Source of the DNA: Verrucomicrobiota bacterium
GTDB taxonomy: Bacteria; Verrucomicrobiota; Verrucomicrobiia; Limisphaerales; UBA11358
Assembly: GCA_049511835.1 (NCBI GenBank)
Contig: JBEKXN010000008.1
Span: 42,090 to 106,089 of the forward strand
Direction of reading: 5' to 3'
Length of the DNA: 64,000 nucleotides
Below the pieces are notes generated by a model, which was not told the origin of the DNA, made no database searches, and saw only the letters and a program-made list of their open reading frames with translations. Below, one piece after another: positions 3,132 through 60,938 of this stretch. Positions within the stretch are counted from its first letter, which is position 1. Every line of letters starts with the position of its first letter. A program made the position numbers and the translations under genes.

Positions 3132-4433
3132 TCAGTTCCCCATCGTCACCTGCAACGGCGCGGCGCGGCGCCCGGCAAAGCGGCGCACGTAATTTTCCCA
3201 CTGGATGTGGTTGGTGAAATCGCCGCTGCGGTCCCAGCACGCGCCAAAGTAATACGTGAACGGCTGGCCGGCCTTCACCTGCGTAACGGCGAGCAAATTG
3301 CGGATCGGCGGCGCGCCTTCAACCGTCGGTTGCGGCACGACGGCGTGCAGAACTGAATCAGCCAAATCCGGCGCGTCGTTCGTAAATGCCTGCACACCGC
3401 CTTTTGGCAAAACGATGGCAACGCCCATGGTCCCTTTCGGCTTGTCTTCCGGCTGCCAGTAACTCATCCAGCCCTCGGTCCGGTCTTGCGCAATCAATTC
3501 CTCGCCGTCCGGCCCGCACGCGCGTTCGGCCAGCCCGACCGCGATGGTCAGCGGCGAATTGGTTCCGCTGGCGAATGTGCTCTGCGCCTTGGTAAACCAT
3601 GAACCGGCGTCAATGCTGTAACGTTTGGTTTCGGAAACCTTCCGTCCGTTGCCGGCGTCCCATGCGTCGTAGGTCAGCTCGAATTCCGACCGGATTGGGC
3701 CGGTGGTGATGAGCTTCCAGTTGCGGTAATTGCTTGAGGTGTAAAGCTTTTTGCCATCCCAAATGCCCACGCCTCCGCAGCCGCGGCTGTTGCCGACCCG
3801 ATAATCGTCCATGAACTCGCCGTTGTCCTCGTGGTAATGCTTGGTGGCATACATCATGTCCACGATGAGGTCGCGGTTCTTTTTGATCCAGACATCCGGG
3901 CCGCTGCTGATGGTCCCCTCACCCTTGATGAGCGCCTGGCCGTAGGTGCGGAAAGCGATGCGGTCGCTTTCCCACGCGAAATCGTCGTAGCGTTCCGGCA
4001 CGTAACGCGCAAGCGTCTTCACCGCCGGCGCTGACACATCGGTCAACGGCGTGGCGTCCAGAACGTAATACGTCCGCGTCTCATGTGGCGCGAGGTCAAC
4101 CTGGAAGAGCAGTTTGTCCGGCGCTGAATTCGATTCGGAAGCATAAACCTGGGAATCCAAAATGTTCAAGGAACCCGCGTCCATCACGGCGAACTTGCCC
4201 GTCGCCGGGTCAAGCTGAAGGACGGCGGCGACGGCCGGCAGATTGAATTCAACCGTTTCACTTTCGCGGCTGAAGTTCGCGGGGTTGGTGACCTTGACGG
4301 AAACTCGCGTCGCGTCCTTCAACCCCGCCGTTTGATTCCGCCCGCCGCCCGGCGCGGCGGCGGCGACCGTCAAGGCGACACAAAAACATGCCAAACCGGA
4401 CAAGAGTTGAAAACGAACAAATGAATTTTTCAT
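3132..4433 (-). CDS. secreted DUF4861-like protein of uronate/pectin utilisation loci
   Basis: ORF 3132..4694 trimmed to ATG 4433, which gives signal peptide MKNSFVRFQLLSGLACFCVALTVAAAAPG. RYDDFAWESDRIAFRTYG, GPDVWIKK, GCGGVGIWDGKKLY resemble DUF4861 (family recalled from memory). Sits next to kduD/kduI. Confidence 0.65.
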   Translation of the reverse strand: MKNSFVRFQLLSGLACFCVALTVAAAAPGGGRNQTAGLKDATRVSVKVTNPANFSRESETVEFNLPAVAAVLQLDPATGKFAVMDAGSLNILDSQVYASESNSAPDKLLFQVDLAPHETRTYYVLDATPLTDVSAPAVKTLARYVPERYDDFAWESDRIAFRTYGQALIKGEGTISSGPDVWIKKNRDLIVDMMYATKHYHEDNGEFMDDYRVGNSRGCGGVGIWDGKKLYTSSNYRNWKLITTGPIRSEFELTYDAWDAGNGRKVSETKRYSIDAGSWFTKAQSTFASGTNSPLTIAVGLAERACGPDGEELIAQDRTEGWMSYWQPEDKPKGTMGVAIVLPKGGVQAFTNDAPDLADSVLHAVVPQPTVEGAPPIRNLLAVTQVKAGQPFTYYFGACWDRSGDFTNHIQWENYVRRFAGRRAAPLQVTMGN

Positions 4434-4456
4434 CAGTGACGCAGGGTGGTTGTGGT

Positions 4457-5239
4457 TCACCGCGCCAGCCAGCCTCCATCCACGTTCATGATGGTACCGC
4501 TCAGATAGTCGGCGTCCTTCGAGGCGAGGAACAAGGCCGCTCCCGCAATGTCCTCCGGCCGACCCCAACGGCCCTCGGGGATGCGGTCGAGGATGGCCTG
4601 ATTGCGTCTGGCATCTTCCCGCAATGCCTTCGTGTTCTCCGTGGCGATGTAACCAGGGGCCACGGCGTTGATGTTGATGCGCTCCTTTGCCCATTCGTTG
4701 GCGAGGGCCTTTGTGATTCCCGCGACGCCATGTTTGCTCGCCGTGTAGGCGGCAATGTTGATACCGCCCTGAAATGAAAGCAGCGACGCGATATTCACAA
4801 TTTTCAAGCGCGCGTCAGCGGACGATTGTCCGCGTCCGCTCGTCAGCCACCATTTCGCCACCGCCTGGCAAAGGAAAAATGGCGCGGACAAATTGGTCTG
4901 CAACACCTCGTTCCAGTCCGCTTCGGAAAAATCCACCGCCGGCGCGCGGCGGATGATGCCGGCGTTGTTGACCAGCGCGTCAATGCGGCCGGTTTGCTTC
5001 AGAATCTGCGCCACCAAATCCGCGGCCTCCGGCTGCGTGGTTTTGCCCAGATCGGCATTGACGGCCACAAATTCGCCGCCGGCGTTTTTGACCTGCGAAG
5101 CCGTTCCCGACAAATCGCTCCGCGCCATGCCCGCGACCTTCGCGCCTTCGCGGGCAAACGCAATGGCGATGGCCTGCCCGATTCCCCGGCTCGCGCCGGT
5201 GACAACGACGACCTTGTTGGCAAATCGTTTCGTTTCCAT
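4457..5239 (-). CDS. kduD: 2-dehydro-3-deoxy-D-gluconate 5-dehydrogenase (SDR)
   Basis: ORF 4457..5332 trimmed to ATG 5239. TGASRGIG, NNAG, YTASKHG, C-terminal NVDGGWLAR. Adjacent to kduI. Confidence 0.85.
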   Translation of the reverse strand: METKRFANKVVVVTGASRGIGQAIAIAFAREGAKVAGMARSDLSGTASQVKNAGGEFVAVNADLGKTTQPEAADLVAQILKQTGRIDALVNNAGIIRRAPAVDFSEADWNEVLQTNLSAPFFLCQAVAKWWLTSGRGQSSADARLKIVNIASLLSFQGGINIAAYTASKHGVAGITKALANEWAKERININAVAPGYIATENTKALREDARRNQAILDRIPEGRWGRPEDIAGAALFLASKDADYLSGTIMNVDGGWLAR

Positions 5240-5255
5240 TTTTCTTTTATTTGAT

Positions 5256-5324
5256 TCGGAGGGGCGAATTACACGAGCCCCAAAACTTTTTTCTGTCAGG
5301 GCGTCGCGGAGCTCCGCCCTCCGG
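5256..5324. repeat. REP-like hairpin element (family B), second copy
   Basis: TCGGAGGGGCGAATTACACGAGC ... GGAGCTCCGCCCTCCGG. Imperfect inverted repeat in the kduI-kduD gap, same left arm as 3063. Confidence 0.5.
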
Positions 5325-29400: not shown

Positions 29401-31857
29401 TTAAAAAGGACGCTGCCAGCCGACACCGAATTGGAACCGGCCGGACCTGCCGTTGTATTGATCGTGATTAATGGGCACGCCATATTCAAGCCGCAACGGG
29501 CCGAGCTTGGGGATGTTGATGTGCAGGCCGAGGCCCCAGTTGTCATCAAAATTTCCTGAAAACGAATAGGGTTGCGCGCCAACGTCGCCGATGTCGTAGA
29601 ACAGGGCGAAGCGCACGCCGGGACCATTGTCCTTTTCAAAAATGGGCAGGCTGTATTCCACCGAGCCCATCCAGTAACTGTCGCCGCCAATCGGATCCTC
29701 CACTACTTTGGGTGCGTAGGGATCAAACGGTTCGCGCGGGCCGATGCTGCGGTATCTGAAACCGCGCAGCGAATAGAGGCCGCCAAGATAATACCGGTCA
29801 TAAAACGGCACGTCGCCGGAACTCAAACTGTCCGCAATGCCGGCGCGTCCGACCGCCTCAATCACATGGCCTTTGAACAGGCCGGGAAAATACCAGGCGG
29901 TTTTGGCTTCCACTTTGTAATACGTGGTGTCGCCGAGGCTGAATTCCGGGTCAATTTCCGTCCGCTGGCCGTGATTCGGCAATTGCGTGCTGTTGCGCGT
30001 GTCATAGGCAAGGGTTACGCCAAAGCGCTGATACAAATGATCGCCGGTTTGATCAAGAATGGCATTCGGCACGTTTCGCGAGTTTCCCCAAGGAAGAGGA
30101 TACGTTTCATCACCATGAAACCCGCCGTTCAGGCTGATGCCCACGTCTTCGAGCGTGTAGCTGACGCTGCCGATAAGAAAGTCGCTCCACAACGCGCGGG
30201 TCAGGCTCAGGCGCACGCCGGTCCGGTCTTCATTATAAATGTTATTCGGACTCTCAAAGTCCCATTGATGCCGGTAAAGGTCCACCCCGAACGAAAGTTT
30301 GCGGTTCAAAAACCACGGCTCGACGAACGAAAGTTCGTAGTCCTGGCGCTTGGTGCCGAGTTGAACGAAGAGCCGGAGTTTCTGGCCGGCGCCGGTGAAC
30401 GTGGGCGGGTGGAACAGGTCGGCATTGCCCTGCGTTATCTCGGCGTAACCCACCAGCGCGTCCACCGAACTGAAACCCGCGCCCAGCATGAAGTTGCCGG
30501 TGTTCTGTTCCTCCACGTTTACGATCAAATCCTTGCGCCCGGCAATCGGCGGGTCGGTCGTCTCCGGCCGCATGTCCACCTTTTCGAAATACTGCAAGCC
30601 TTCGAGACGCTGCTTGCTGATTTTGACGCGCACCATGTCAAAGGTTTCGCCCGGGGAAATGGCCAGTTCGCGGCGGATGACCTTGTCCTTGGTCTTGTTG
30701 TTGCCGCGGATGTCAATTTTTTCGACGCGGGATTTCTGTCCTTCCTTGATTTGAAACTCCAGATCCATCGTGCCCGTCTCCACGTTCGGAATGTACGCGG
30801 CGCGCAGCGCCGGTCCCTGCCCCACGTCAATGTAACCCTTGCTGCCGTAAAAATCCTCGATGGCCTGCGTGTCCTTGTTCAGGCCGCCGGGCGTGAAAAT
30901 GTCGCCGACGTCCATGGCCAGGCCGTGCGGGCCGAGCTTGTCCTTGGAATGTTCGAAGTTGTGGACGGATTGCAGGCCGTGATGGATTTCCTCCGCATTG
31001 AAAAGTTTGTTGCCGGTGAAGGTGACCGAGCCGACCTTGTATTGCCGTCCTTCATTGAGGTAAAAACGAATCACCATTTTGTTTGTCGCCGGGTGATCGA
31101 GCTTCACGTCCTTGATTTCAAAATCAAGATAACCCCGACTGTGGTAAAATTCGGCGAGCTGGTCGCGGTCGTCGTCGAAATCATCCTCCTTGAACACGCC
31201 GCTGCCCGTCAGCCACGAAAACATCCAGCGCCGTTTGGTCTTGAGCTGTTTGCGCAGTTCCTTTTGCGAGAAGGCCGCCGGGCCGATGAAATCAACCTGC
31301 TCGATTTTGATCTTTTGCGCTTCGGTGATTTCAAAGGTGACCGTGCCGCGTCCCGCATTCTCGTCAATGTTCGGAACATATTTCACCTGGGTGCCGGCCC
31401 GGCCATATTTTTCGTAAAGCTTCTGGATTTCCTGGCAGTCGCTGAACATTTTCTGCTCGTCGAAAGGCTGGCCGGTTTTCACGGTGATTTTCTTCCGGAT
31501 TTTGGAATCACTGAGTTTTTTGTTGCCCTGAATCTTGATGTCCGTCAGCCGCGGCCGCGGCTGCACCACGTAGGTGAGCACCACGCCGCCGTCATCGGCC
31601 GGTTCCGCCGTGACGCGGATGTTGTAAAACTGCCCGGTCGCATAGAGCGCGTGGATGTCGTCCTCGGTGGCCAGGGGAAGATAAATGTCGCCGGCTTTGA
31701 GGCGGATGTTGGAACGGACCAATTGTTCGCTGACCGACGCCGGGCCGATATACTTCACGTCCACGCGGTCAATTTTCGGGCCGGTCGGCTGCGCCCACAC
31801 GGCTGACGCGCCGCCGAGCAACAGCCAGATTCCGAATCGGCGGAAAAATAATTTCAT
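29401..31857 (-). CDS. bamA: outer membrane protein assembly factor BamA (Omp85)
   Basis: 818 aa; signal peptide, five POTRA-like segments (IDRVDVKYIG..., LTDIKIQGNKKLS..., IEQVDFIGPAAFS..., VGSVTFTGNKLF..., VEKIDIRGNNKTKDKVIRREL), C-terminal barrel ending ...RFQFGVGWQRPF. Confidence 0.9.
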   Translation of the reverse strand: MKLFFRRFGIWLLLGGASAVWAQPTGPKIDRVDVKYIGPASVSEQLVRSNIRLKAGDIYLPLATEDDIHALYATGQFYNIRVTAEPADDGGVVLTYVVQPRPRLTDIKIQGNKKLSDSKIRKKITVKTGQPFDEQKMFSDCQEIQKLYEKYGRAGTQVKYVPNIDENAGRGTVTFEITEAQKIKIEQVDFIGPAAFSQKELRKQLKTKRRWMFSWLTGSGVFKEDDFDDDRDQLAEFYHSRGYLDFEIKDVKLDHPATNKMVIRFYLNEGRQYKVGSVTFTGNKLFNAEEIHHGLQSVHNFEHSKDKLGPHGLAMDVGDIFTPGGLNKDTQAIEDFYGSKGYIDVGQGPALRAAYIPNVETGTMDLEFQIKEGQKSRVEKIDIRGNNKTKDKVIRRELAISPGETFDMVRVKISKQRLEGLQYFEKVDMRPETTDPPIAGRKDLIVNVEEQNTGNFMLGAGFSSVDALVGYAEITQGNADLFHPPTFTGAGQKLRLFVQLGTKRQDYELSFVEPWFLNRKLSFGVDLYRHQWDFESPNNIYNEDRTGVRLSLTRALWSDFLIGSVSYTLEDVGISLNGGFHGDETYPLPWGNSRNVPNAILDQTGDHLYQRFGVTLAYDTRNSTQLPNHGQRTEIDPEFSLGDTTYYKVEAKTAWYFPGLFKGHVIEAVGRAGIADSLSSGDVPFYDRYYLGGLYSLRGFRYRSIGPREPFDPYAPKVVEDPIGGDSYWMGSVEYSLPIFEKDNGPGVRFALFYDIGDVGAQPYSFSGNFDDNWGLGLHINIPKLGPLRLEYGVPINHDQYNGRSGRFQFGVGWQRPF

Positions 31858-31860
31858 CGT

Positions 31861-33333
31861 CTATTGGTCCACCGGCACGTCTTCGTCACTGACTTTGGCT
31901 GCGCTTTCAAAACGAGTGTACGGTTTCAAAAAGGTTAAGTTTACATCACCTGTGGGGCCGTTGCGCTGCTTCGCAATCAACAGATTAATCGGCAGTCCAT
32001 CCGGCTCTTCCACTGTGGCGCCATCTTCATCTTCACCAGCGTTCGGCTTGTACAGCAGACCCACCACGTCGGCGTCCTGTTCAATCGCGCCCGATTCACG
32101 CAAATCAGACAACCGCGGCTTGCGGCTTTTGTCCCGCTCCAATTCGCGGTTCAACTGGCTGAGCACCAGCATCGGCACCTTCAATTCCTTCGCCAGCGCC
32201 TTGATGCCGCTGGAAATGTCCGAAATTTCCTGCTGCCGGTTTTCCTGTGCCCGGCGCGCAGTAGAATGCAGCAATTGCAGGTAGTCAATCACGAAAAGCT
32301 TGATGCCGTGCTGCTGCGCCAGCCGCCGCGCCCGCGCGCGCAGTTGCAAAATCGAAAGCGCCGCCGAATCATCAATGAACAACGGCGCGCCCGCCAGCCG
32401 GCCCGCCGCGTTGGTCAGCTTCGGAAAATCCGACTCGCTCATGAAGCCTTCGCGGATGCTGCGCAGATTCACCCGCGCGAGCGAACACATCATGCGCAAC
32501 ACCAGCGCCTCCGCGCTCATTTCCAGGCTGAACACGGCCACCGGCAACTTTTGCTCCAGCACCACGTGCTCCGCGATGTTCATGGCGATGGAGGTTTTGC
32601 CCATGCTGGGACGGGCGGCGATGACGATCATTTCACTCCCGTGCAAACCGTCCGTTATCCGGTCCAGGTCCGTGAAGCCCGTGGCCAGGCCGTTCAACAC
32701 GCCTTTGCGGCTGAAATAATTTTCAATCGTCCCGATGGCCTTGCCCACCAGCTCCTTCGTGGGCAACACGCCGCCTCGCACGCGCGATTCCGCAATTTGC
32801 AAAACATCTCGTTCAACCTCGTCAAGTAGTGCATCAACCTCTCCTTCAAATTCATAGACTTTACTGGTCGCCTCAGTGCAAACCGCAATCATTTTCCGCA
32901 ACAAAAATTTTTCGCGGACGATGTCTAGGTAATAGGAAAGATTCGCTGCACTCGGAACTGCGTCCTGGAGTTGGGACAAATAAAGAATCCCACCGATTTG
33001 TTCCAGTAAACCTTTATCTTTTAGCTTTTGCTGAAGAGTGATTACATCAATTCCTTGCCGCTGATCGTACATTGCGGCCAACATCTCGTAAATTGTTTGA
33101 TGTCGCAGGTCATAAAAAACGTCTGGTCCAATATCCTTTAGTTTCTCGATGCATTCTCCCATGCATTCATTAGGCGAAAGCAGCGCACAACCTAGAACCC
33201 CTTGTTCTGCTTCGATCGAATGGGGCGGCAATCGATCCAGATGCAACTTTTCCGTTGCTTCTGACCTTACACGGCGAGTCTTTTTCAAATCTGGCGAAGC
33301 GGTTCTATCTGAATTTAAATTGCTCATATGCAT
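31861..33333 (-). CDS. dnaB: replicative DNA helicase DnaB (start uncertain: ATG 33333 or 33387)
   Basis: LPPHSIEAEQGVLGCALL N-terminal domain; Walker A AARPSMGKTS; IDYLQL; SQLNRELE; AKQRNGPTG. ATG 33333 overlaps the TAA of the upstream 92-aa ORF (TAATG). GC drops from about 60% to about 40% upstream of about 32800. Confidence 0.9.
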   Translation of the reverse strand: MHMSNLNSDRTASPDLKKTRRVRSEATEKLHLDRLPPHSIEAEQGVLGCALLSPNECMGECIEKLKDIGPDVFYDLRHQTIYEMLAAMYDQRQGIDVITLQQKLKDKGLLEQIGGILYLSQLQDAVPSAANLSYYLDIVREKFLLRKMIAVCTEATSKVYEFEGEVDALLDEVERDVLQIAESRVRGGVLPTKELVGKAIGTIENYFSRKGVLNGLATGFTDLDRITDGLHGSEMIVIAARPSMGKTSIAMNIAEHVVLEQKLPVAVFSLEMSAEALVLRMMCSLARVNLRSIREGFMSESDFPKLTNAAGRLAGAPLFIDDSAALSILQLRARARRLAQQHGIKLFVIDYLQLLHSTARRAQENRQQEISDISSGIKALAKELKVPMLVLSQLNRELERDKSRKPRLSDLRESGAIEQDADVVGLLYKPNAGEDEDGATVEEPDGLPINLLIAKQRNGPTGDVNLTFLKPYTRFESAAKVSDEDVPVDQ

Positions 33334-33611
33334 TAATTGTTTTGGTTTGCGGTGGCTTTTGATAACGCTCGTTTGGATCTTCGCCATTGGGTGATATCCG
33401 ACGGCACGTAGATTTTGCTTAACTTTGTGTTAAGCCAATCAGCCCCAAAATCTCCTCTACCAAAATCGTAAGCAGCTTGATCGGGGTCTGTATAATTGGA
33501 GTGAATGAATACCCCATTGAAACAAAAATCCCAAAAGCCTGGACACTCTTTGTTTTTGGAAAGGCTCAACACGCCTTTGCCGGTGTCAAATTCATAATAT
33601 TTGGGTTCCAT
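33333..33611 (-). CDS. hypothetical 92-aa protein, low GC, translationally abutted to dnaB
   Basis: ORF-track ORF MEPKYYEFDTGKGVLSLSKNKECPGFWDFCFNGVFIHSNYTDPDQAAYDFGRGDFGADW... No family recognised. Confidence 0.4.
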   Translation of the reverse strand: MEPKYYEFDTGKGVLSLSKNKECPGFWDFCFNGVFIHSNYTDPDQAAYDFGRGDFGADWLNTKLSKIYVPSDITQWRRSKRALSKATANQNN

Positions 33612-33711
33612 ACGTTTCGAAGATCAGGCTACTCATTCAACTGTAAAAGAAAAAAACGACTTCTTCACCGCTTAAATCGACGTTTGTGAATAAAGGACGA
33701 GTAATTTTTTT

Positions 33712-35034
33712 TTATTCACAAGGTTGCTGACAAAAATTCATTACGAAAGTGCTGGCACTACGGCCAATGTGGCGGTTTGGTGACGCTCCGTTCCGGACGA
33801 GCTTGATCTCCCCAGCCTTTTGTCCAATTGCAGGAGCACTCCAGTTTTCGCGGTTTATCTGCCGGGACAACGCCAAGTAGAGGCATACCCAAATCAAATT
33901 GAAATCTCTGATGCGGCATTGTGGAAGCTCCGGTAATCCGTGTTTATCCTTGTTCCAAGGTGAAGCACCGCCGCCGTTGTGCGGGTGATAACTGACGAGT
34001 TGCCAGCGCCGCCCGTCCGCCACAACGAGGCCTTGTGGCGAACCTGCGACGCGACCCAACAGCGGTGAACCTTCCGGCAGATGAGCGCCGTCAAGCGGTT
34101 GGCCGGGATAACCACCCGGCACAATGACCAGCACATCGGTCATCTGAAGATGCCGGTAACCCGGACGCGTTGGCACGTCGCGGTAAATCACCGCCGGGAA
34201 CGGTTGCTGGATGAAATCCACCCGGCAACCACCCTGCTTGAGTTTTTCCAACTCGCGCTCAATGCGCGTCGGTTCGACAAAGCCGCCGGCGACGTTGTTT
34301 CGAACCACACGGAACTCGTCGCAGTTCTCGATGCAAATCTCCTTGTCCAAGGGCACGGGTTCGGGTTCGCCCTTCTTCAACAGGCGGAACACTTCCGTAT
34401 TGCGCGGATTGTCGCTGACAAGCGCGGCGATTTGCAACCCAGTCATGTGATGCTTTACGCCCTCGGCCTCAGTGAAGCGTTTGTTGTTCACGATGATTTC
34501 CAGTTGAGTGTGCTGACGGCGGGTGTAAAACACCGGCCCCTTGTCAAACGGCGCGGCTTCTTCAAGGCTGATTGACTCGTCACGCGGTGACTCAAAATCC
34601 CGGAACAGAAGCACGTCATCCTTAAAGCCAAACAGCTCGCGGATGGACTTTCCAGTCTGATGCGGATTTATCGTCACCTCCGCCCGGTCGTCCACGATTA
34701 GGGCCAGCTTCGGCGGCGCGCTGCATTGCCCACGCGGTTTTACGTCGCAGGCGGCCAACCGATAGAAGACGTTTCCTTTTGCGAGGTCAACGGTTTCTCC
34801 GTCGGCTAATACCGTGTCATCCGGCGAGTCGTAATCACGGACCAGCACGAAATTGGGAGGAATCTCGGCTTGCGCCTTGATGACGCCGACCTTGACCAGT
34901 TGCCGCGGCATCGGAATCGGCTCATCATCAACCAGCGCTGCCCACTTTGGCGCGGGGCTGCAATTCTGCGCATGTTCTGCCTCGGGTTCTCCGCGGCCCT
35001 CTTGAATAACTTTATCGTTCATAGTCTTTCTCAT
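33712..35034 (-). CDS. fusion of three ubiquitin-like (multiubiquitin-type) repeats with a prokaryotic E2-fold (Prok-E2_E-like) domain
   Basis: ORF 33712..35178 trimmed to ATG 35034 (or 35022), because the long form overlaps the divergent XRE gene. Three repeats of about 65 aa: ALVDDEPIPM...GNVFYRL / ALIVDDRAEV...GPVFYTR / LEIIVNNKRFTEAEGVKHHMTGLQIAAL...DEFRVV. Then VPTRPGYRHLQMTDVLVIVPGGYPGQPLDGAHL...DGRRWQLVSYHPHNGGGASPWNKDKHGL, resembling the lPxGY...DlLixlPxgYP...WQRwSRH...W pattern. Family assignment is from memory and unverified. Confidence 0.55.
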   Translation of the reverse strand: MRKTMNDKVIQEGRGEPEAEHAQNCSPAPKWAALVDDEPIPMPRQLVKVGVIKAQAEIPPNFVLVRDYDSPDDTVLADGETVDLAKGNVFYRLAACDVKPRGQCSAPPKLALIVDDRAEVTINPHQTGKSIRELFGFKDDVLLFRDFESPRDESISLEEAAPFDKGPVFYTRRQHTQLEIIVNNKRFTEAEGVKHHMTGLQIAALVSDNPRNTEVFRLLKKGEPEPVPLDKEICIENCDEFRVVRNNVAGGFVEPTRIERELEKLKQGGCRVDFIQQPFPAVIYRDVPTRPGYRHLQMTDVLVIVPGGYPGQPLDGAHLPEGSPLLGRVAGSPQGLVVADGRRWQLVSYHPHNGGGASPWNKDKHGLPELPQCRIRDFNLIWVCLYLALSRQINRENWSAPAIGQKAGEIKLVRNGASPNRHIGRSASTFVMNFCQQPCE

Positions 35035-35074
35035 TTCGAGTTTTAGCGACCAGTTCCAACGTGGGAACCAGCTC

Positions 35075-35102
35075 GATGTTGCGTTAGTGCAACATCGTTG
35101 CA
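35075..35102. promoter_or_regulatory. overlapping palindromes, candidate XRE operator(s) in divergent promoter region
   Basis: GATGTTGC-GTTAGT-GCAACATC overlapping TGCAAC-ATC-GTTGCA. Half-site GTTGC/GCAAC occurs four times within 28 bp between the Ubl/E2 gene and the XRE gene. Confidence 0.4.
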
Positions 35103-35170
35103 TTACCAATAACACAAAAGACTTGTCGCGCAAGTGAAAAAGTGTATCATTCAAGAAACAGTTATTGCCT

Positions 35171-35545
35171 ATGCCCACTCAACCACATATCAACCTGAAA
35201 AAATTGGCGGCTCACCTTCGCACGAAGCGCGGCACAAAAGGCCTGCGCGAAGTAGCGATGGAAATTGGCGACGTGAGTGCTTCTACACTCTCGCGAATCG
35301 AACAAGGCAATGTGCCAGATGTGGCCACCTTCATGCGCATTTGTCGGTGGTTGGGGGTAGATTCCCGTGCATTCATGACGGAAACATCTTCGGAAAAGGA
35401 AAAAATCGATACCCCGCACGTCATTGAAGCGCATCTCCGGGCGGATCGCGTTCTGCCTTCAGAAACGATTAACGCGCTATCAGAAATGATTCGCGTCGCG
35501 TATAAGGCGGCGAAGGAGGGGAAACTAAAAAAAATGAACGAATGA
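35171..35545 (+). CDS. XRE-family helix-turn-helix transcriptional regulator
   Basis: LKKLAAHLRTKRGTKGLREVAMEIGDVSASTLSRIEQGNVPDVATFMRICRWLGV is a Cro/C1-type HTH. ATG 35171 preferred over TTG 35165. Confidence 0.75.
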   Translation: MPTQPHINLKKLAAHLRTKRGTKGLREVAMEIGDVSASTLSRIEQGNVPDVATFMRICRWLGVDSRAFMTETSSEKEKIDTPHVIEAHLRADRVLPSETINALSEMIRVAYKAAKEGKLKKMNE

Positions 35546-35549
35546 ATTC

Positions 35550-36122
35550 ATGCAACGTGGTTTCAAAACTAAGGCAGAAAAAATTGCGTGTGAACTCAGG
35601 GCCAAGCTCGGACTTACCGCACATTCACCACTTTCTGCAAAGAAACTCATCGAGCATTTGGAGGTTTTGCTCCTCCGGCCTACGGACATCCCTGAATTAA
35701 AGCCCGAGGTGATTGACGAAATGCTGAACGGTAGTGCAAGTCGTTGGTCCGCTGTTACGATTTACGATCCGTGCGGTCAGCCTTTCATTATCCACAATCC
35801 GAAACATGCGCCGACGCGTCAAGAAAGTGATCTCATGCACGAGGCTGCCCATGTTCTATGCAAACATCCACCTGGAAAGATTGTTCGGGTAGGAGAACTA
35901 AATTTTCGCTCCTATGATGAAAACCATGAGGAAGAAGCCAAATGGCTCGGTGCATGTTTGCAGATCACCAGACGCGGCTTACTTTGGGCTATCGGTCGCC
36001 AGATGACCATCGAGCAAATTGGCGAATATTTCTGTGCAAGCGAGGCGCTCATTCGGTATCGGCGGAATGTGACAGGTGTGGATGTGCAAATGATGCGGTA
36101 TTACGGTGTTTCGTATCGTTGA
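35550..36122 (+). CDS. ImmA/IrrE-family zinc metallopeptidase
   Basis: HEAAHVLCKH (HExxH) with downstream EEEAKWLGACL. Lies 4 nt after the XRE gene, the classical XRE-ImmA pair. Confidence 0.75.
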   Translation: MQRGFKTKAEKIACELRAKLGLTAHSPLSAKKLIEHLEVLLLRPTDIPELKPEVIDEMLNGSASRWSAVTIYDPCGQPFIIHNPKHAPTRQESDLMHEAAHVLCKHPPGKIVRVGELNFRSYDENHEEEAKWLGACLQITRRGLLWAIGRQMTIEQIGEYFCASEALIRYRRNVTGVDVQMMRYYGVSYR

Positions 36123-36253: not shown

Positions 36254-36709
36254 ATGAAATTCAAAATCTACGCTGCTAAAATCGAAGACATGAACCAAGG
36301 TTGGGTTTGGCTTGGCGGGCACGACAAGCTTGACCAACGAAGTATTGTCAAGTTCTCAACTGGCAGCACGCATAAAAGTGTCTATTGTGAAGTTCTCAAA
36401 ATAGACGGAAACTTCATAAACGACTACAACCGGCCCGGCGAAGGCCGCATTGCGATTAGTGATCAGCAATCAGCATTAGTTGTTAGCGAGTGGTATAGGA
36501 AAAAGTTGGGAAATTTGCAAACACGCACCGAGGTTGAAATCAACGTGGAAGTCGCTAATCGTGTTTGTGGACGGCTTCATGCCTGTTTAGATCATCCCCA
36601 AGTGGTGGTTCGCCTTGCTACAATGCTTGGAATTTGGAGCGTCGTTCTCGGTGTTATTGCTGTCATTCTTGGCGCTATCGCTATTGTCGAACCTTTCTTC
36701 ATAAAATGA
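36254..36709 (+). CDS. hypothetical protein with soluble N-terminal beta-rich domain and C-terminal transmembrane anchor
   Basis: 151 aa; C-terminus LATMLGIWSVVLGVIAVILGAIAIVEPFFIK is strongly hydrophobic. Low GC. No family recognised with confidence. Confidence 0.5.
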   Translation: MKFKIYAAKIEDMNQGWVWLGGHDKLDQRSIVKFSTGSTHKSVYCEVLKIDGNFINDYNRPGEGRIAISDQQSALVVSEWYRKKLGNLQTRTEVEINVEVANRVCGRLHACLDHPQVVVRLATMLGIWSVVLGVIAVILGAIAIVEPFFIK

Positions 36710-36898
36710 CCAAATCCGTGTCAAAAATCTGCGTTCATCCGCATATCTACTGGTGACCCGCCGGCCATTTACATCTCTACTGTATCGGCTAACGCGCGTC
36801 CTGCATCGGCTCATGGGTTTCCTTGACCCGCTAACAGCCTGACCGAAAAATTCTGTCAATTCCATCGGCCACCGCTAAACTTGGCGCATATTGGAGAC

Positions 36899-38188
36899 AT
36901 GAACCGCAAACCATCGTTGCTCGTCGTTTTCCTGACGGTCTTCATTGACCTCATCGGTTTCGGCATCGTCGTGCCGCTGGTGCCGATTTACAGCCGGCAT
37001 TACGGCGCCAACGGCTTCGTCATCGGCGCCATCTTCGCCTCGTTTTCCGCGATGCAATTTGTCTTTTCCCCGGTTTGGGGCCGGCTGTCCGACCGGCACG
37101 GTCGTCGGCCGATTCTGCTCATCAGCACCGCCAGCGCGGCTGTGTCGTACCTGCTGTTTGCCATCGGTTCGGGCTTTGAAAATCACACCGCCGCGCTTTG
37201 GGCGTTGCTGATCTCCCGCGTCTGTGCCGGTATTTGTGGCGGCAACATCACCGTCGCCCAGGCTTACATCGCCGACATCACGCCGCCGGAAAACCGGTCG
37301 AAGCGGATGGCCCTCATCGGCGTGGCCTTCGGATTGGGGTTTGTTATCGGTCCGGCACTCGGCGGGATTACCTTGCATTTTTTCGGCGCCACCGGTCCGG
37401 GTTGGACTGCCGCGGCGCTGTGCGCGGCCAATTTCATTCTGGCGTTTTGCATCCTCGCCGAAAGCTTGAAGCCGGAATCCAGCCAGGCGACCCGACGACC
37501 GCATTTTGCCCAGTGGGGCCACACCCTGTCTCAGCCGAAAATCGGCTTGTTGATCCTGATTTTCTTTCTGGCCACGTTCGCCTTCAGTTGCTTTGAAACA
37601 ACCCTGGCATTGTTGGTTAACGATAATTTCAATCTCGGCCTCACTGTGGACGAAACCAAACCGGGAGTCACGGTCACTTCCCTGTTTGTTTTTTGTGGAA
37701 TCATCGGCGTGTTTATCCAGGGCGGGGCCATCGGCCGGCTGGTCAAAATGTTCGGCGAACCGAAATTGATTTCCCTGAGCCTGTTCCTGACCGGCATCAG
37801 CCTGATTCTCCTGCCGTTCATCAAAGGCGACGGCCAGCTCAAGTGGCTGGCCGTTCTGCACGCGACCGACTGGCCGTGGATCAAAATGCTTCTGGCGCTG
37901 GCGCTGCTGGCAGTGGGTACCGCCCTGACGCGACCGCCGCTGTTCGGATTGCTTTCCAACCTGGCGCCGCCGAACGAACAGGGCGCGACCATCGGCGTCG
38001 CGCAAAGCGCCGGCAGTCTGGCGCGCATTCTCGGCCCGCTCTTCGCCGCGACGCTTTACACGCACGTCGCATCGCTGCCTTACGTGACTTGTGGTGTCAT
38101 TTCCATCCTGGCTGGGGTTTTGGCGGTTGGGCGGTTGGGCGGGGGAGCCGGGGCCGTTGACAGAAAAGCGCCGGAAGCGGCGAATTGA
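36899..38188 (+). CDS. MFS transporter (TCR/Tet-like drug:H+ antiporter type)
   Basis: ATG 36899 preceded by GGAGA. MNRKPSLLVVFLTVFIDLIGFGIVVPLVP...GRLSDRHGRRPILL motif A. Confidence 0.8.
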   Translation: MNRKPSLLVVFLTVFIDLIGFGIVVPLVPIYSRHYGANGFVIGAIFASFSAMQFVFSPVWGRLSDRHGRRPILLISTASAAVSYLLFAIGSGFENHTAALWALLISRVCAGICGGNITVAQAYIADITPPENRSKRMALIGVAFGLGFVIGPALGGITLHFFGATGPGWTAAALCAANFILAFCILAESLKPESSQATRRPHFAQWGHTLSQPKIGLLILIFFLATFAFSCFETTLALLVNDNFNLGLTVDETKPGVTVTSLFVFCGIIGVFIQGGAIGRLVKMFGEPKLISLSLFLTGISLILLPFIKGDGQLKWLAVLHATDWPWIKMLLALALLAVGTALTRPPLFGLLSNLAPPNEQGATIGVAQSAGSLARILGPLFAATLYTHVASLPYVTCGVISILAGVLAVGRLGGGAGAVDRKAPEAAN

Positions 38189-38189
38189 T

Positions 38190-39407
38190 TCAGCGCAAAA
38201 AAAGTTCCGCCGCCGAATCGGCAAAACGCAATCCCTGCGGTGTGAGTCGAAATTGTTGCGCGTCGCATGAAGCCCAGCCGCGTTCCACCAATTGGTTCAT
38301 TTCCGCCGACCACCCGTCGCGCAAATCGAAATCAGTCGCGCGCCGGAATTCCGCAAACGGCCAGCCTGCATTCATCCGCAAACCGAACGCGGCGGTTTCG
38401 CCCGCGCGTTTCAACGGCGGCAATTCTTCGCGGGATTCAATGGCGCGTTTCCCCTTTTCCAGTTGCTCGCAGTAAAGTTGCGTGTTCGACCAGTTCTTCG
38501 TCCGCACGCCGCGCACGTAACTCGTCGCACTGGGGCCCAACCCGTAAAACGGACCGCCGCGCCAGTAATTCACATTGTGTTTGCAGGCAAGGGCGGGAAT
38601 GGAACGCCGGCCTCCGGCCCGGCTTTGACCGGAACGTGCAAATCGTGCCGTGCCGGAGGCCGGCGCTCCGGCTCCGCGCGCAAAATTGGCAACCTCGTAT
38701 TGTTGAAATCCCGCCGCCGTTGCCTGTTCGATGAGTTCCTCATACATCGCGCAGGCCAGGTCTTCATCCACGTCAAATTCCCCGGCCTGCAGTTGCGCAA
38801 AGAGCGGCGTGTCGTCCTCGTAAATGACTTCGTAGGTGGACAAATGTTCGCTGCCGAGCGCCAGTGCCTCGGACAGGGTCGCGCGCCAGATTTCCATGGT
38901 CTGACCGGGAATCGCGAACATCAGGTCGAGATTCAAATTGTCAAAACCGGCCCGGCGCAGGATGTCGAACGACTTGAAGGCCATTTCGCGGGTATGGATG
39001 CGGCCGAGCCGTTCGAGCAATGGTTCGTCGAGTGACTGCACGCCCAGGGAGATGCGGTTCACGCCGAAGTCGCGAAGCAATTTTGCCTTGTCGGGTGAAA
39101 CGGTGGCGGGATTGCATTCCACCGTGAATTCTTCCGCGCCCAGCAGATTCAACCGCTCCAGGGCGTGGAGAATTTGTTCCCACTGGCGCAAGTTGAGCAG
39201 CGATGGTGTGCCGCCGCCAAAGAAAATCGTGCGGGGCTGAAGATCGTGCGCCACCAGTTCCAGCTCGCGGAGGAGCGCGGCGACGTAGCGGTTGATGAGG
39301 TCGCCGCTGGACGGCTCGGAATAAAAGGCGCAGTACGCGCATTTCTGCGCGCAGAATGGAACGTGAATATAAAGGCTTTCGACCGTGGTCGCGATGGAAC
39401 CAGCCAT
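38190..39407 (-). CDS. hemW: radical SAM heme chaperone HemW / coproporphyrinogen III oxidase-like
   Basis: LYIHVPFCAQKCAYCAFYS (CxxxCxxC), GGGTPS, HemN_C-like tail. Confidence 0.85.
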   Translation of the reverse strand: MAGSIATTVESLYIHVPFCAQKCAYCAFYSEPSSGDLINRYVAALLRELELVAHDLQPRTIFFGGGTPSLLNLRQWEQILHALERLNLLGAEEFTVECNPATVSPDKAKLLRDFGVNRISLGVQSLDEPLLERLGRIHTREMAFKSFDILRRAGFDNLNLDLMFAIPGQTMEIWRATLSEALALGSEHLSTYEVIYEDDTPLFAQLQAGEFDVDEDLACAMYEELIEQATAAGFQQYEVANFARGAGAPASGTARFARSGQSRAGGRRSIPALACKHNVNYWRGGPFYGLGPSATSYVRGVRTKNWSNTQLYCEQLEKGKRAIESREELPPLKRAGETAAFGLRMNAGWPFAEFRRATDFDLRDGWSAEMNQLVERGWASCDAQQFRLTPQGLRFADSAAELFLR

Positions 39408-58766: not shown

Positions 58767-59435
58767 ATGATCGTCGCACAAAGAAAAAACATACCCGAAC
58801 TGCTGGACATCGTTGGTAAACACCGGAAGGTGCTCCTGCTCGGCTGCGGCACCTGCGTGACCGTCTGTCTGGCCGGCGGCCAGCGCGAAGTCGGCATCAT
58901 CGCCTCCGCCCTGCGCATGGCGGCCAAATTGAAAGGCCGCCCCCTGGAAGTCGAGGAACTCACCATCGAACGCCAGTGCGACAACGTCTTCCTCGAACAA
59001 GCCGCCGATGCCATCAAGCAAAACGACTGCGTGCTGTCCATCGGCTGCGGCGCCGGTGTGCAGGCCATCGCCGAGCGATTCGCCAACAAACCGGTTTATG
59101 CCGGGCTGAACACCGCGTTCATCGGCATCCTGGAAGAACGGGGCGTCTGGACGGAAAAATGCGCCGCCTGCGGCGAATGTGTGCTGCATCTCTACGGTGG
59201 CATCTGTCCCATCACCCGGTGTGCGAAGAAAATGATGAACGGCCCGTGCAGCGGTTCCCGAGAGGACCGATGCGAAGTCAGTCCCGACCGACCCTGCGCC
59301 TGGCAATTGATTTACAAACGCCTGAAAGACATCGGCCAGTTAGACCGCCTGAAAGAGCACAAGAAACCCAAGAACTGGCAGCCGAGCCTCTCCGGCGGTT
59401 TCCGTAAAATAATTAGAGAAGACCACAGAGTTTAA
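58767..59435 (+). CDS. metV: MetV-type methylenetetrahydrofolate reductase small (Cys-rich, MTHFR_C-like) subunit
   Basis: LLLGCGTCVTVCLAGG...SIGCGAGVQ...CAACGECVLHLYGGICPITRCAKKMMNGPCSGS...CEVSPDRPCAW. Confidence 0.75.
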   Translation: MIVAQRKNIPELLDIVGKHRKVLLLGCGTCVTVCLAGGQREVGIIASALRMAAKLKGRPLEVEELTIERQCDNVFLEQAADAIKQNDCVLSIGCGAGVQAIAERFANKPVYAGLNTAFIGILEERGVWTEKCAACGECVLHLYGGICPITRCAKKMMNGPCSGSREDRCEVSPDRPCAWQLIYKRLKDIGQLDRLKEHKKPKNWQPSLSGGFRKIIREDHRV

Positions 59436-59625
59436 ACGGCTGAAACAAAAACTCTAGCGTTTAGCTTTTATCTTTTGGCATTTCCGCTGGCCCGTAGCGT
59501 GGGGCAATGCCTTTTACGTGAGCCAGCCACGTGGCGCAACTCAGCGGGTGGCTTGAAGATGAACCCCGCCCAGATATTGCATTTAGATGTAAATGGCTTG
59601 TAAAACAAAGATATTATGTTAAAGC

Positions 59626-59940
59626 ATGATTCCTATGAATGGGAAAGCATTGGCTTCAAGATTAGAAGGTAAAAGAGTTGGTCAGTGGAATGTGATCAAA
59701 CGCAAACCCAAAGATGCGGCTGATTCTAGCGGATATTTTTCGTCTTGCTACTTCGTTGAGAACGACAAGGGAGAAAAGGCGTTCTTAAAAGCTTACAATT
59801 ACCTCTATGCGTTCGGTCGCAAAACGGGTTCCGCCGACACGTTGAAATTCATGACAGAAAATTTCACATATGAACGTGATCTGTTAAAGATATGCGGTGA
59901 TAGCAAAATGCGTCGAGTGGTAAGGCGAAACGATATTAAG
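59626..59940 (+). pseudogene. N-terminal fragment of a protein-kinase-like gene, truncated where the toxin-antitoxin cassette begins
   Basis: LEGKRVGQWNVIKRK...GYFSSCYFVENDKGEKAFLKAYNY...ENFTYERDLLKI resembles a kinase N-lobe (glycine loop region, AxK, alphaC Glu). Beyond about 59940 the ORF runs antisense to higA. Confidence 0.3.
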
Positions 59941-59960
59941 CGATCAGGGAACGCATGCGT

Positions 59961-60251
59961 TTATGCTGGTTCCAACACAATCTTGACCTTGCGTCCCAGG
60001 GCGCGCGCCGCCTTGCCCAAGGTGTTCAGTGTGACCGAGGCATTGGAAGCATCCAGCAACCGGTCCACCGCCGCGCGGCTGGTTTTCATCCGGGCCGCCA
60101 TTTGCGTCTTGGTCAGTTCCTTCTCTTTCAACAGGCGGTCCAATTGAAGGCTCAACGCCTGCTTCAGCGCGCGGGCCTCGACTTCGCCCCGGATGCCTTG
60201 TTCATCCAGGAAATCCCGGAAGTCGCTTCCGCGATGTGTTTTTTTGCTCAT
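59961..60251 (-). CDS. higA: HTH (XRE-type) antitoxin, HigA-like
   Basis: ATG 60251 overlaps the toxin stop (ATGA). ...LLKEKELTKTQMAARMKTSRAAVDRLLDASNASVTLNTLGKAARALGRKVKIVLE. Confidence 0.7.
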   Translation of the reverse strand: MSKKTHRGSDFRDFLDEQGIRGEVEARALKQALSLQLDRLLKEKELTKTQMAARMKTSRAAVDRLLDASNASVTLNTLGKAARALGRKVKIVLEPA

Positions 60252-60598
60252 AGATTTTGCCAATATTGTTTTTTGCGTTTCTTTGCCAATTCCAGTTCGT
60301 CTGGCGGCGTCTTTTGCTGTTTCTTGATGAAGCCGTGCAGCAGCACAATTTCCTGATCCACCATCGTAAACAGCGTCCGCGCGATGCGGTTATCCAACCG
60401 TGAACGGACCTCCCAAATGCCGTCACCCAAATTGTCAACCAACGGCTTCCCTACCGGCCACGCGTATTGCACCGTCAGAATGTCCGTGCCGATGACCTTG
60501 CAGTCCTCTTTCGACAATCCTTTCAGCCATTCCCGCACTGGTTCATTGCCCGCCTCGGTCTTGAAAAAGACGACTTTGAGCGGGCGTTCAGCTTTCAT
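60248..60598 (-). CDS. higB: RelE/ParE-superfamily toxin (HigB / phage Gp49-like), toxin-first operon
   Basis: LKVVFFKTEAGNEPVREWLKGLSKEDCKVIGTDILTVQYAWPVGKPLVDNLGDGIWEVRSRLDNRIARTLFTMVDQEIVLLHGFIKKQQKTP. Confidence 0.75.
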   Translation of the reverse strand: MKAERPLKVVFFKTEAGNEPVREWLKGLSKEDCKVIGTDILTVQYAWPVGKPLVDNLGDGIWEVRSRLDNRIARTLFTMVDQEIVLLHGFIKKQQKTPPDELELAKKRKKQYWQNL

Positions 60599-60938
60599 CC
60601 GCAAAGTAGTGTATCAAAAAAGATACGTTTGTCAAATGGAGATAAGCAGCGCCCCGATGTGCTTTGGAACTGGTCACAAATTGTGACCAGTTCGGAGTAT
60701 CTTTCTGAATGCCAATGGATTGCACACATGAGGTCACAAATTGTGACCTCAAGTTGGCGACTTCTGCCGCAGTCAGTTGAAAGGTAAAGTCCGTGGGAAA
60801 TCGGTCAAAGTTGCGCTTTACAGCCTGGTTGAAAACTTTTGTCGGCACACCATAAAGCTCCGCCAAGTCGGCATCCAGAATCACCTTCTGATTGCGAATG
60901 TTCAAAATCAGGGTTTCAATCGGTTTCTTTGGCTTCAT
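60588..60938 (-). CDS. ORF6N (KilA-N-like) DNA-binding domain protein, probably C-terminally truncated/degenerate
   Basis: IRNQKVILDADLAELYGVPTKVFNQAVKRNFDRFPTDFTFQLTAAEVANLRSQFVTS is ORF6N-like. The usual GGRRYxPYAFTE continuation is garbled, and the 3' end overlaps higB. Confidence 0.55.
   Translation of the reverse strand: MKPKKPIETLILNIRNQKVILDADLAELYGVPTKVFNQAVKRNFDRFPTDFTFQLTAAEVANLRSQFVTSCVQSIGIQKDTPNWSQFVTSSKAHRGAAYLHLTNVSFLIHYFADES

Follow-up and report, generated by a model that had tools for sequence, protein, structure and literature searches.

The replicative helicase gene dnaB of a peat-bog Verrucomicrobium (Limisphaerales, UBA11358) was analysed in a stretch of 64,000 nucleotides (nt), referred to here as the window (assembly GCA_049511835.1, contig JBEKXN010000008.1, positions 42,090 to 106,089). 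This dnaB is a recombinant, in-frame mosaic, in which a cassette carrying a divergent, low-GC 5' end has most probably been joined to the remainder of the native gene. The cassette is of what we call class A, meaning a low-GC dnaB 5' end linked to a small upstream open reading frame (ORF), orf92; class B is the common 5' end, which has no such ORF and whose GC content at third codon positions (GC3) is like that of the host. The unit of exchange is the leader, orf92 and the dnaB N-terminal domain together, and not the domain alone. Class A is itself an old AT-rich allele lineage, found patchily through Limisphaerales, and is not a one-off import.

The step in composition within dnaB is clear. 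All five 60-nt GC values quoted in an earlier note on this DNA were reproduced exactly (0.617, 0.583, 0.45, 0.40 and 0.367), and positions 32800-33387 have a GC content of 0.439 against a window mean of 0.579 (standard deviation, sd, 0.040), with 0.8% of 588-nt segments being equally low. Along the gene, the first ~180 codons have a GC3 of 0.30-0.53 and the codons after them one of 0.73-0.93, and the maximum-likelihood change point falls at residue 183 of 490 (window ~32785), with 0.41 before and 0.76 after (likelihood-ratio test, 59.7). The step is mainly synonymous, as GC content at first and second codon positions and amino-acid composition change little. The N-terminal GC3 of the window lies >4 sd under the mean of ~78 relatives (0.73, sd 0.07, minimum 0.55). 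The break that the earlier note had set at about residue 195 (32800-32820) is thus a real step, but its change point lies slightly 3' of there. The proposal that it coincides with the boundary between the N-terminal/linker region and the C-terminal domain stands, since the Pfam matches (DnaB_N, PF00772, residues 36-141, E 8e-30; DnaB_C, PF03796, residues 215-476, E 4e-98) put the step in the inter-domain linker. The linker itself had been described as encoded by low-GC DNA, but the conserved linker helix (residues ~196-214) falls in the native GC-rich part. In an alignment with Geobacillus DnaB the step comes directly after the helical hairpin, at the start of the linker; we take these structural boundaries on DnaB to be those of the published structures. 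Upstream, the low GC was said to continue seamlessly into an island of ubiquitin-like (Ubl) and E2-like genes. It does run through orf92 and its leader to ~33800, but the body of the Multi_ubiq/E2 ORF (33900-34900) is back at 0.55-0.65. The TAATG overlap between the two genes is as described, with the orf92 stop TAA at 33335-33333 and the dnaB ATG at 33333-31.

The window has matches of 99.4-100% identity in eight contigs of the same strain, which come from separate JGI, ENA and Logan samples and were picked out by their exact orf92 identity. The junction at 32749-32785 is spanned by L092, L093, L095 and L097 (loci are given here by L numbers), four of these eight. As independent contigs cross the junction, the mosaic is not an assembly chimera.

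DnaB was split at the step, and both parts were compared with 80 species-level loci and with metagenome loci. The C-terminal domain of the window is 96-98% identical in nucleotides to that of its closest species (L004-L008, L015), with a synonymous divergence (dS) of ~0.10, and bamA, the neighbouring gene downstream, is 87-96% identical. In the N-terminal domain, identity to the same species is 62-70%, and third positions, at 32-45%, are essentially saturated. These species, the closest by both BamA and the DnaB C-terminal domain, carry an N-terminus of normal GC and very different sequence. The nearest N-termini are those of L003, L084, L104 and L105, which share 81-85% of their N-terminal domain with the window, 82-84% of the C-terminal domain and 70-78% of bamA. 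The window is the clearest replacement, with flanks that are near-identical to those of class B sisters and an N-terminus saturated with differences.

Neighbour-joining trees were built on Kimura distances and bootstrapped, and the separate phylogenies of the two dnaB parts are strongly incongruent. In the N-terminal tree, the window forms an exclusive clade with L003 and L084 (100/100 bootstraps), and in the C-terminal tree it groups with the L004-type loci to the exclusion of L003 (98/100). The seven orf92-linked N-terminal domains available for these trees make up one exclusive clade of the N-terminal tree and are scattered in the C-terminal tree. Maximum chi-square analysis of sequence triplets places the breakpoints at residues 187-198 (window 32742-32775), with chi-square values of 141-181 and 0/1000 permutations as high. 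In the codon alignment, the window is of the L003/L084 type as far as ...LQIAESR (residue 184); residues 185-194 form a linker peculiar to the window, and identity with the L004 type begins at residue 196. On the strength of this switch in the codon alignment the junction is set at 32749-32785, and with the chi-square result the breakpoint lies within 32742-32785. One of the two explanations offered in the earlier note, exchange of the N-terminal domain with a foreign dnaB, is supported by the incongruent trees, by the permutation result and by the normal-GC N-termini of the closest species.

Three further observations concern dnaB in this clade. Its C-terminal half (window 31864-32748, compared among L001, L004-L011, L015, L022 and L025) is 95-99% identical in nucleotides, with dS of 0.04-0.15, among GTDB species whose bamA, mfs and hemN genes are 81-96% identical, mostly 84-93%; possible reasons for this near-identity are a recent sweep and very frequent recombination in that half. 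Many database DnaB proteins of the clade are fragments that stop at ~200-320 amino acids (aa), and assemblies tend to break at dnaB because the C-terminal halves are near-identical across species. A separate dnaB mosaic is found at L001:5605-7495 (= L002), where the first ~100 codons have a GC3 of 0.38 and are diverged from all sampled loci, the GC3 step is at residue 96, and the gene is preceded by a unique 111-aa ORF for which the other loci have no homologue. With this breakpoint near residue 100, dnaB breakpoints are not confined to one site.

Class A extends well beyond the window. Of the nine class A loci that are complete and mosaic, eight (the window, L003, L084, L033, L100, L103, L104 and L105) have their GC3 change point within codons 175-192; L102, the exception among the nine, is intermediate in GC3, and L101 is uniform. 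In ~80 species-level loci without orf92, the GC3 of the two parts differs by ~0.05 on average, and three of these loci show smaller or shorter steps, L001/L002 being the clear exception. A low-GC N-terminus with the upstream ORF, and without the Ubl island, occurs in at least seven other lineages (L003, L033, L084, L100, L103, L104 and L105). The GC drop is therefore decoupled from the island, which counts against the other explanation of the earlier note, that an integrating element brought in the 5' segment. Both members of the pair are constrained: orf92 has a ratio of non-synonymous to synonymous divergence (dN/dS) of 0.10-0.15 and is thus under purifying selection, and the dN/dS of the N-terminal domain is 0.03-0.06 in class A against 0.16-0.17 in class B pairs at comparable dS. 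Between class A loci, dS is 0.9-1.75 in the N-terminal domain and 0.45-0.75 in the corresponding C-terminal domains, and the sampled carriers are not recent donors of each other.

The orf92 family is small and closely tied to dnaB. It forms 24 clusters (90% identity) in 5.8e9 proteins, all of them annotated as 'hypothetical', and those with a named organism are from Verrucomicrobiota; a profile search of 1.84 billion sequences returned 51 representatives. In a profile search of 85 dnaB loci, the family was found solely upstream of low-GC dnaB genes, and it stands directly before dnaB, or overlaps its start, in 12/12 other loci in which the sequence reaches that far (L003, L033/L086, L084, L085, L089, L090, L100-L105). 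Cassette DNA homology with L003, L084, L085, L033 and L088 runs from the dnaB junction through orf92 and ~125-140 nt of leader, ending at 33694-33750 (blastn). Searches of orf92 against Pfam, PHROGs, NCBIfam and PADLOC gave no match, and 107 pattern matches in viral contigs yielded no confirmed case. An AlphaFold2 model of the protein (predicted local distance difference test score, pLDDT, 76) shows four strands and two helices along with a basic tail that is disordered; neither the PDB nor BFVD contains a significant structural match.

The leader carries an inverted pair of DnaA-box-consensus motifs, TTATTCACA. There are three TTATNCACA matches in the 64-kb window (0.66 expected; 4/100 shuffles reach three), all at 33.68-35.80 kb, the third lying at 35788-35796 on the forward strand, ~2 kb from the leader pair. 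The motif is kept in all orf92 leaders. Of the 20 boxes in related loci (1.23 Mb), 12 are at most 450 nt upstream of dnaB, and these occur both in class A loci and in some of class B; leaders with the motif are those of L003, L005, L006, L022, L033, L062, L084, L085 and L088-L090. This distribution suggests DnaA-dependent control of dnaB in this clade. A promoter/terminator scan of the leader did no better than shuffles. An origin of replication (oriC) was also considered for this region and rejected: the leader has two consensus boxes with a third 2 kb off, the window has no GC-skew switch, and the AT-rich DNA is coding and under purifying selection.

The spacer between dnaB and the divergent MFS transporter gene, into which the cassette extends, is a hypervariable insertion hot spot. 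Among relatives it ranges from 138 nt to 4120 nt (4.1 kb) and holds unrelated cargo, such as an M78-peptidase-like gene (L005/L006), an IS3-type insertion element (L034) or sugar-modification genes (L054). The cargo in L005, L006, L034 and L054 leaves the dnaB N-terminal domain native. At L005:6880-8010 and in L006, a low-GC gene for a 267-aa M78-peptidase-like protein has been inserted precisely at the dnaB ATG, so that this gene has taken over the native leader and the first four codons of dnaB (ATGATTGATTC) at its head and the 11-nt string is repeated before dnaB; the dnaB genes of these two loci have a new leader with a TTATTCACA box.

Most likely, class A replaced class B here by homologous allelic recombination. 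The 3' crossover would lie at 32749-32785 in the linker, where classes A and B first align at high identity, and the 5' end of the exchange would fall somewhere in the hypervariable MFS-dnaB spacer. The imported part would then be ~32786-33750. Native to the genome's own lineage are hemN, the MFS gene and bamA, together with the dnaB linker helix and RecA-like domain, and the sampled sister species have a class B 5' end. In this sub-lineage the cassette would have come with, or later gained, a Multi_ubiq/E2-E1 system, the E1 gene of which has since been deleted here. Homologous replacement is favoured because the hallmarks of integration are absent, the cassette is free of the island in other loci, and breakpoints vary.

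A site-specific integrative element that supplied the first ~184 codons in frame, together with a promoter, is in our judgement very improbable, and is largely refuted for this window. Such an element could be suspected from the island that adjoins the replaced segment, and from L102, a distant class A genome whose Multi_ubiq, E1, leader and orf92 are 80-90% identical in nucleotides to those of the window though its bamA is at 75%; L102 also has a 95-nt MFS remnant, as if flank fragments had travelled along. The precise insertion at the dnaB start in L005/L006, with its 11-nt duplication, further shows that insertions which rebuild the 5' end do occur here. The element aimed at the 5' end of dnaB that the earlier note envisaged nevertheless finds little in the window to stand on. 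Pfam and PADLOC scans of the ORFs at 33.3-36.9 kb found no integrase or recombinase, the products being Multi_ubiq/E2-like, helix-turn-helix (HTH) and M78 peptidase proteins and three without assignment. The attachment-site-like direct repeats expected near 32.8 and 36.87 kb amount to 13-23-nt matches at chance level, there is no tRNA or tmRNA gene in the window, and neither a displaced native dnaB 5' end nor the native leader and start ATGATTGATTCC was found there by tblastn, blastn and pattern search. Moreover, in L003, L088, L090, L100, L103, L104 and L105 the cassette has no island and directly adjoins the MFS gene or some other gene, and the regulator genes of the island differ between the window and L102. 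One part of the claim survives, in that L102 is collinear with the window, so island and cassette travel together in this sub-lineage. Even less credible is that no exchange took place, and that the low GC3 is a local selected or mutational feature (a translation ramp, or a regulatory or unwinding region) or the product of a chimeric assembly or bin. It is true that AT-rich DNA and DnaA-box-like motifs occur together upstream, and that the low GC3 persists over deep class A divergence. This reading is refuted, however, by ~80 relatives of the same synteny without the drop, by the incongruence of the N- and C-terminal halves with full bootstrap support, and by the agreement of independent assemblies at 99.4-100% across the junction; the window also lacks a GC-skew switch.

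A different history is an ancient balanced (trans-species) polymorphism, in which classes A and B have long coexisted and the window lineage kept class A while frequent homologous recombination with sister species homogenised its flanks up to the edge of the divergent allele, with no foreign import; phages that inhibit the helicase collar or hijack it could, for example, drive it through frequency-dependent selection. We regard this as the less probable course, with a small though real chance of being right. Several observations suit it: class A occurs as singletons within class B-dominated clades; the boundary is the same in 8/9 complete mosaic loci, as expected if homogenisation stops where homology ends; N-terminal identity ranges over 0.61-1.00 among pairs with at least 95% identical C-terminal domains, implying several allele classes; and the C-terminal domain is 95-99% identical among species against 84-93% for bamA, mfs and hemN. 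On the other side, all same-strain contigs carry class A (not a fair sample, given their retrieval by exact orf92 identity), no species has been seen with both classes, and recombination at the junction is still needed, so that the polymorphism differs from an import only in direction and timing. The points that weigh against replacement by import belong here too. Class A is old, because its N-terminal dS is at least as large as its C-terminal dS, which also favours the polymorphism. The nearest class A matches are at 85% nucleotide identity for the N-terminal domain (L003) and 90% for orf92 (L102), with no near-identical donor in 5.8e9 proteins; a protein search with the N-terminus only returned mostly fragments, the best at 86%. 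With no near donor found, the time and direction of the transfer are not fixed, and an ancient polymorphism retained while recombination homogenised the flanks fits most of the data equally well. The amino-acid closeness of the window, L003 and L084 is partly a matter of strong constraint and not of recent sharing, and the deeper class A clade, with L033, L100 and L101, could be inflated by compositional attraction, an effect that would not touch the grouping of the window with L003 and L084. The low GC3 also persists in high-GC hosts over such divergence, and the role proposed below for orf92 would rest on genomic context.

The low GC3 belongs to class A as a lineage and not to this one event, because the same boundary is seen in 8/9 complete mosaic loci. 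Two candidate causes can be put forward. Class A may have been exported repeatedly from lower-GC genomes. Alternatively, a divergent and rarely recombining allele may escape GC-biased gene conversion, or selection, and drift towards AT. The lower GC3 of rarely recombining and accessory DNA is indeed a tenet of the hypothesis of GC-biased gene conversion in bacteria (PMC4450053). The dnaB case resembles it in that the GC3 deficit is found only where the sequence is too divergent to recombine with the majority allele, and the recombining C-terminal domain is GC-rich and near-identical among species; it differs in that a lower-GC origin like that of L101 explains the same pattern. Escape from conversion would explain the identical boundary in eight lineages, the low GC3 at dS > 1 in high-GC hosts, and the short tract of L001. 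The L101 fragment (L101:1-2696, ~49% GC) encodes a 157-aa orf92-family protein that overlaps the start of a dnaB with uniform GC3 of ~0.48, followed by a small coiled-coil ORF in place of bamA; it could stem from a lineage of lower GC, or from a mobile setting, whose composition suits the pair.

In DnaB, contacts with primase and DnaA are made through the N-terminal collar. The most economical reading of orf92 is as a putative partner of this collar: it is found nowhere but before dnaB, its stop overlaps the dnaB start in a way that would couple their translation, and it is distributed together with one clade of N-terminal domains, which is under tighter constraint. More speculatively, and with the odds against it, the orf92 products might form a new small-protein family acting on the DnaB collar (as a co-factor, a regulator, a loader-like 'operator' or a shield against phage hijacking), which co-evolves with a dedicated N-terminal class and is moved or maintained with it as a module. 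Partners of the helicase have been replaced horizontally and non-homologously elsewhere, with DciA giving way to DnaC/DnaI, DopE or VdhL1/2 and DnaB co-evolving (PMC5109545, PMC11087808). In phage SPP1, the gene for the G39P loader lies directly upstream of that for the G40P helicase (PMC6316719, PMC11087808). The likeness to the DciA, DnaC and G39P cases lies in a small, sporadic protein that is coupled to DnaB and tied to a distinct DnaB class, and in the order of small factor, then helicase. However, known loaders bind the linker-helix/docking-helix (LH-DH) module on the C-terminal side of DnaB (PMC9912922), and here it is the N-terminal collar that co-varies. The exchange of the helicase domain itself is not described in the studies of loader replacement, and orf92, unlike the known loaders, is paired with DnaB by genome context only. 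DciA/DUF721, DnaC/DnaI, G39P and lambda P were each considered as identities for orf92, and it has no sequence or significant fold similarity to any described loader family. Binding to the collar, if orf92 is capable of it, would set this protein apart from the known loaders.

The Ubl island next to the cassette is best understood from L102, in which a 2.2-Mb contig carries Multi_ubiq, a ThiF-type E1, the leader, orf92 and dnaB in an order collinear with the window. At L102:2840-5446 a 377-aa Multi_ubiq protein is followed by an intact 487-aa ThiF-type E1. Nucleotide identity between the window and L102 is 85% in Multi_ubiq, 82% in the 3' end of E1 (33762-33939), 80% in the leader and 90% in orf92, then 76% in the dnaB N-terminal domain, 84% in the C-terminal domain and 75% in bamA; relative to L102, orf92 and the N-terminal domain are separated by a further breakpoint. 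Since L102 positions 3922-5264 (~1.34 kb) are missing from the window, most of the E1 gene has been deleted here. The Ubl/E2 ORF of the window is a deletion derivative, and its ubiquitin-like system is probably defective. The window's XRE-type, M78-like and orf151 genes have no homologues in 91 related loci or in L102 and L103 (L100, L101, L104 and L105 lay outside this search); they are the regulator side of the island and are specific to this strain or species. On its own regulator side (L102:1132-2671), L102 has a sigma-70-like protein and a 287-aa ORF, unlike the window's XRE/M78/151-aa ORF set, and it keeps only a 95-nt 5' remnant of the MFS gene beside the island. Judged from this shared arrangement, island and orf92 are co-inherited in this sub-lineage and were probably transferred together. 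Of the two units the cassette is older and occurs more widely, and the island is a later addition common only to the window and L102.

Table 1. Features of the dnaB region, with positions in the window
Feature	Position	Strand	Remarks
bamA	29401..31857	-	Native flank downstream of dnaB; 87-96% nt identity to L004-L008, L010, L011, L015
dnaB	31861-33333	-	490-aa protein; ATG at 33333
dnaB 3' part	31861..32748	-	Linker helix and RecA-like C-terminal domain, residues 196-490 and stop; GC3 0.76; native
Recombination junction	32749..32785	-	Residues ~184-195, variable linker after N-terminal helical hairpin; from codon alignment, GC3 and maximum chi-square
dnaB codons 1-183	32786..33333	-	Class A N-terminal tail, globular head and helical hairpin; GC3 0.41
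orf92	33333..33611	-	92-aa protein, dnaB-linked family; stop overlaps dnaB start (TAATG)
Conserved leader upstream of orf92	33612..33750	-	5' limit of sequence common to cassette-bearing loci
Inverted pair of DnaA-box-consensus motifs	33685-33693, 33712-33720	-, +	In orf92 leader
Multi_ubiq / Prok-E2_E-like ORF	33712..35178	-	488 aa; weak Pfam matches; reads into out-of-frame E1 remnant 33762-33939
XRE-type HTH	35165-35545	+	Pfam HTH_3/HTH_31
M78/ImmA-like peptidase	35550-36122	+	Pfam Peptidase_M78; weak capP match
orf151	36254-36709	+	151 aa, membrane-anchored
MFS transporter	36881..38188	+	Native flank beyond variable spacer; L004 homology picks up again at 36897

The dnaB of the window is the chromosomal ortholog. 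The order in relatives is hemN, MFS (divergent), spacer, dnaB, bamA, a gene for a large surface protein and ompH, and the order hemN-MFS-dnaB-bamA-large protein-ompH is common to most of the 80 species-level loci whose sequence extends that far. No second dnaB was found within the 64-kb window. The protein scores 485.7 bits against TIGR00665 (cut-off 385.25), aligns at full length with the Geobacillus DnaB structures 2R6A/2VYE (E 4e-117) and has the Walker A motif GKT; an alternative ATG at 33387 would give 508 aa, and homologues favour the ATG at 33333. Its nearest relatives are proteins from Verrucomicrobiota/Limisphaerales metagenome-assembled genomes, many of them from peat and bog metagenomes. 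The bamA of the window is 74-78% identical in nucleotides to that of most cassette-bearing loci and 70% to that of L105. The MFS gene, checked as a possible extension of the import, is 84-87% identical to that of the close species, which are 86-92% identical among themselves, so that its divergence is slightly above that among sister species.

Two other patches of the window deserve mention. Within hemN (38190-39407), codons ~241-320 are 52-67% identical in nucleotides to the closest species, apart from L006 (84-87%) and L001 (72-74%), and the remainder of the gene is mostly 90-98% identical to them; this internal segment is another local mosaic or hypervariable patch. A second low-GC patch at ~59300-60600 (0.43-0.47) holds small ORFs, of which a 118-aa ORF beside a 100-aa one look, by eye, like a candidate toxin-antitoxin pair.

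Mosaic core genes arise by interspecies homologous recombination, for example in the penA/pbp2x alleles of Neisseria and Streptococcus. The dnaB mosaic is like these in having a divergent block with sharp breakpoints in an essential gene, a source in a related lineage, and support from incongruent trees and maximum chi-square analysis. It differs from them in taking in a whole domain with an ORF and a leader, in its strong shift of synonymous composition, in recurring at the same boundary in at least eight lineages, and in having no known selective agent. Core genes can also hitch-hike with hypervariable loci, as gnd does beside the O-antigen cluster of E. coli. In the same way, dnaB borders a variable spacer and its spacer-side half is far more diverse than the distal half, but the divergent part of dnaB is tied to one small ORF and not to cargo. 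Some elements insert at the end of a gene and bring a replacement copy, such as e14 or phage 21 at the 3' end of icd, or the islands that target tRNA and tmRNA genes. Here too a segment of foreign composition replaces the end of a housekeeping gene in frame beside accessory genes, but at the 5' and not the 3' end, with no integrase, attachment-site duplication or displaced fragment, and most carriers are free of the island. The known phenomenon is thus a mosaic core gene beside a hypervariable site, and what is unusual is a distinct, domain-sized helicase allele locked to a small protein.

Replicative helicases are usually seen as slow core genes that are inherited vertically, and here half of the gene behaves as an exchangeable allele, which makes dnaB a poor single-gene marker in this clade. 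The locus also offers a natural experiment on the AT-richness of rarely recombining alleles, with a low-GC donor and escape from GC-biased conversion as the alternatives. As a concrete candidate for a new DnaB partner, orf92 comes at a time when helicase loaders and operators are still being discovered, and from the Planctomycetes-Verrucomicrobia-Chlamydiae (PVC) group, the bacteria of which are almost unstudied. If the proposed coupling of orf92 to the collar is true, the primase- and DnaA-facing half of an essential replisome protein would be a swappable, polymorphic module, and its AT-richness would be the footprint of a recombination-cold allele.

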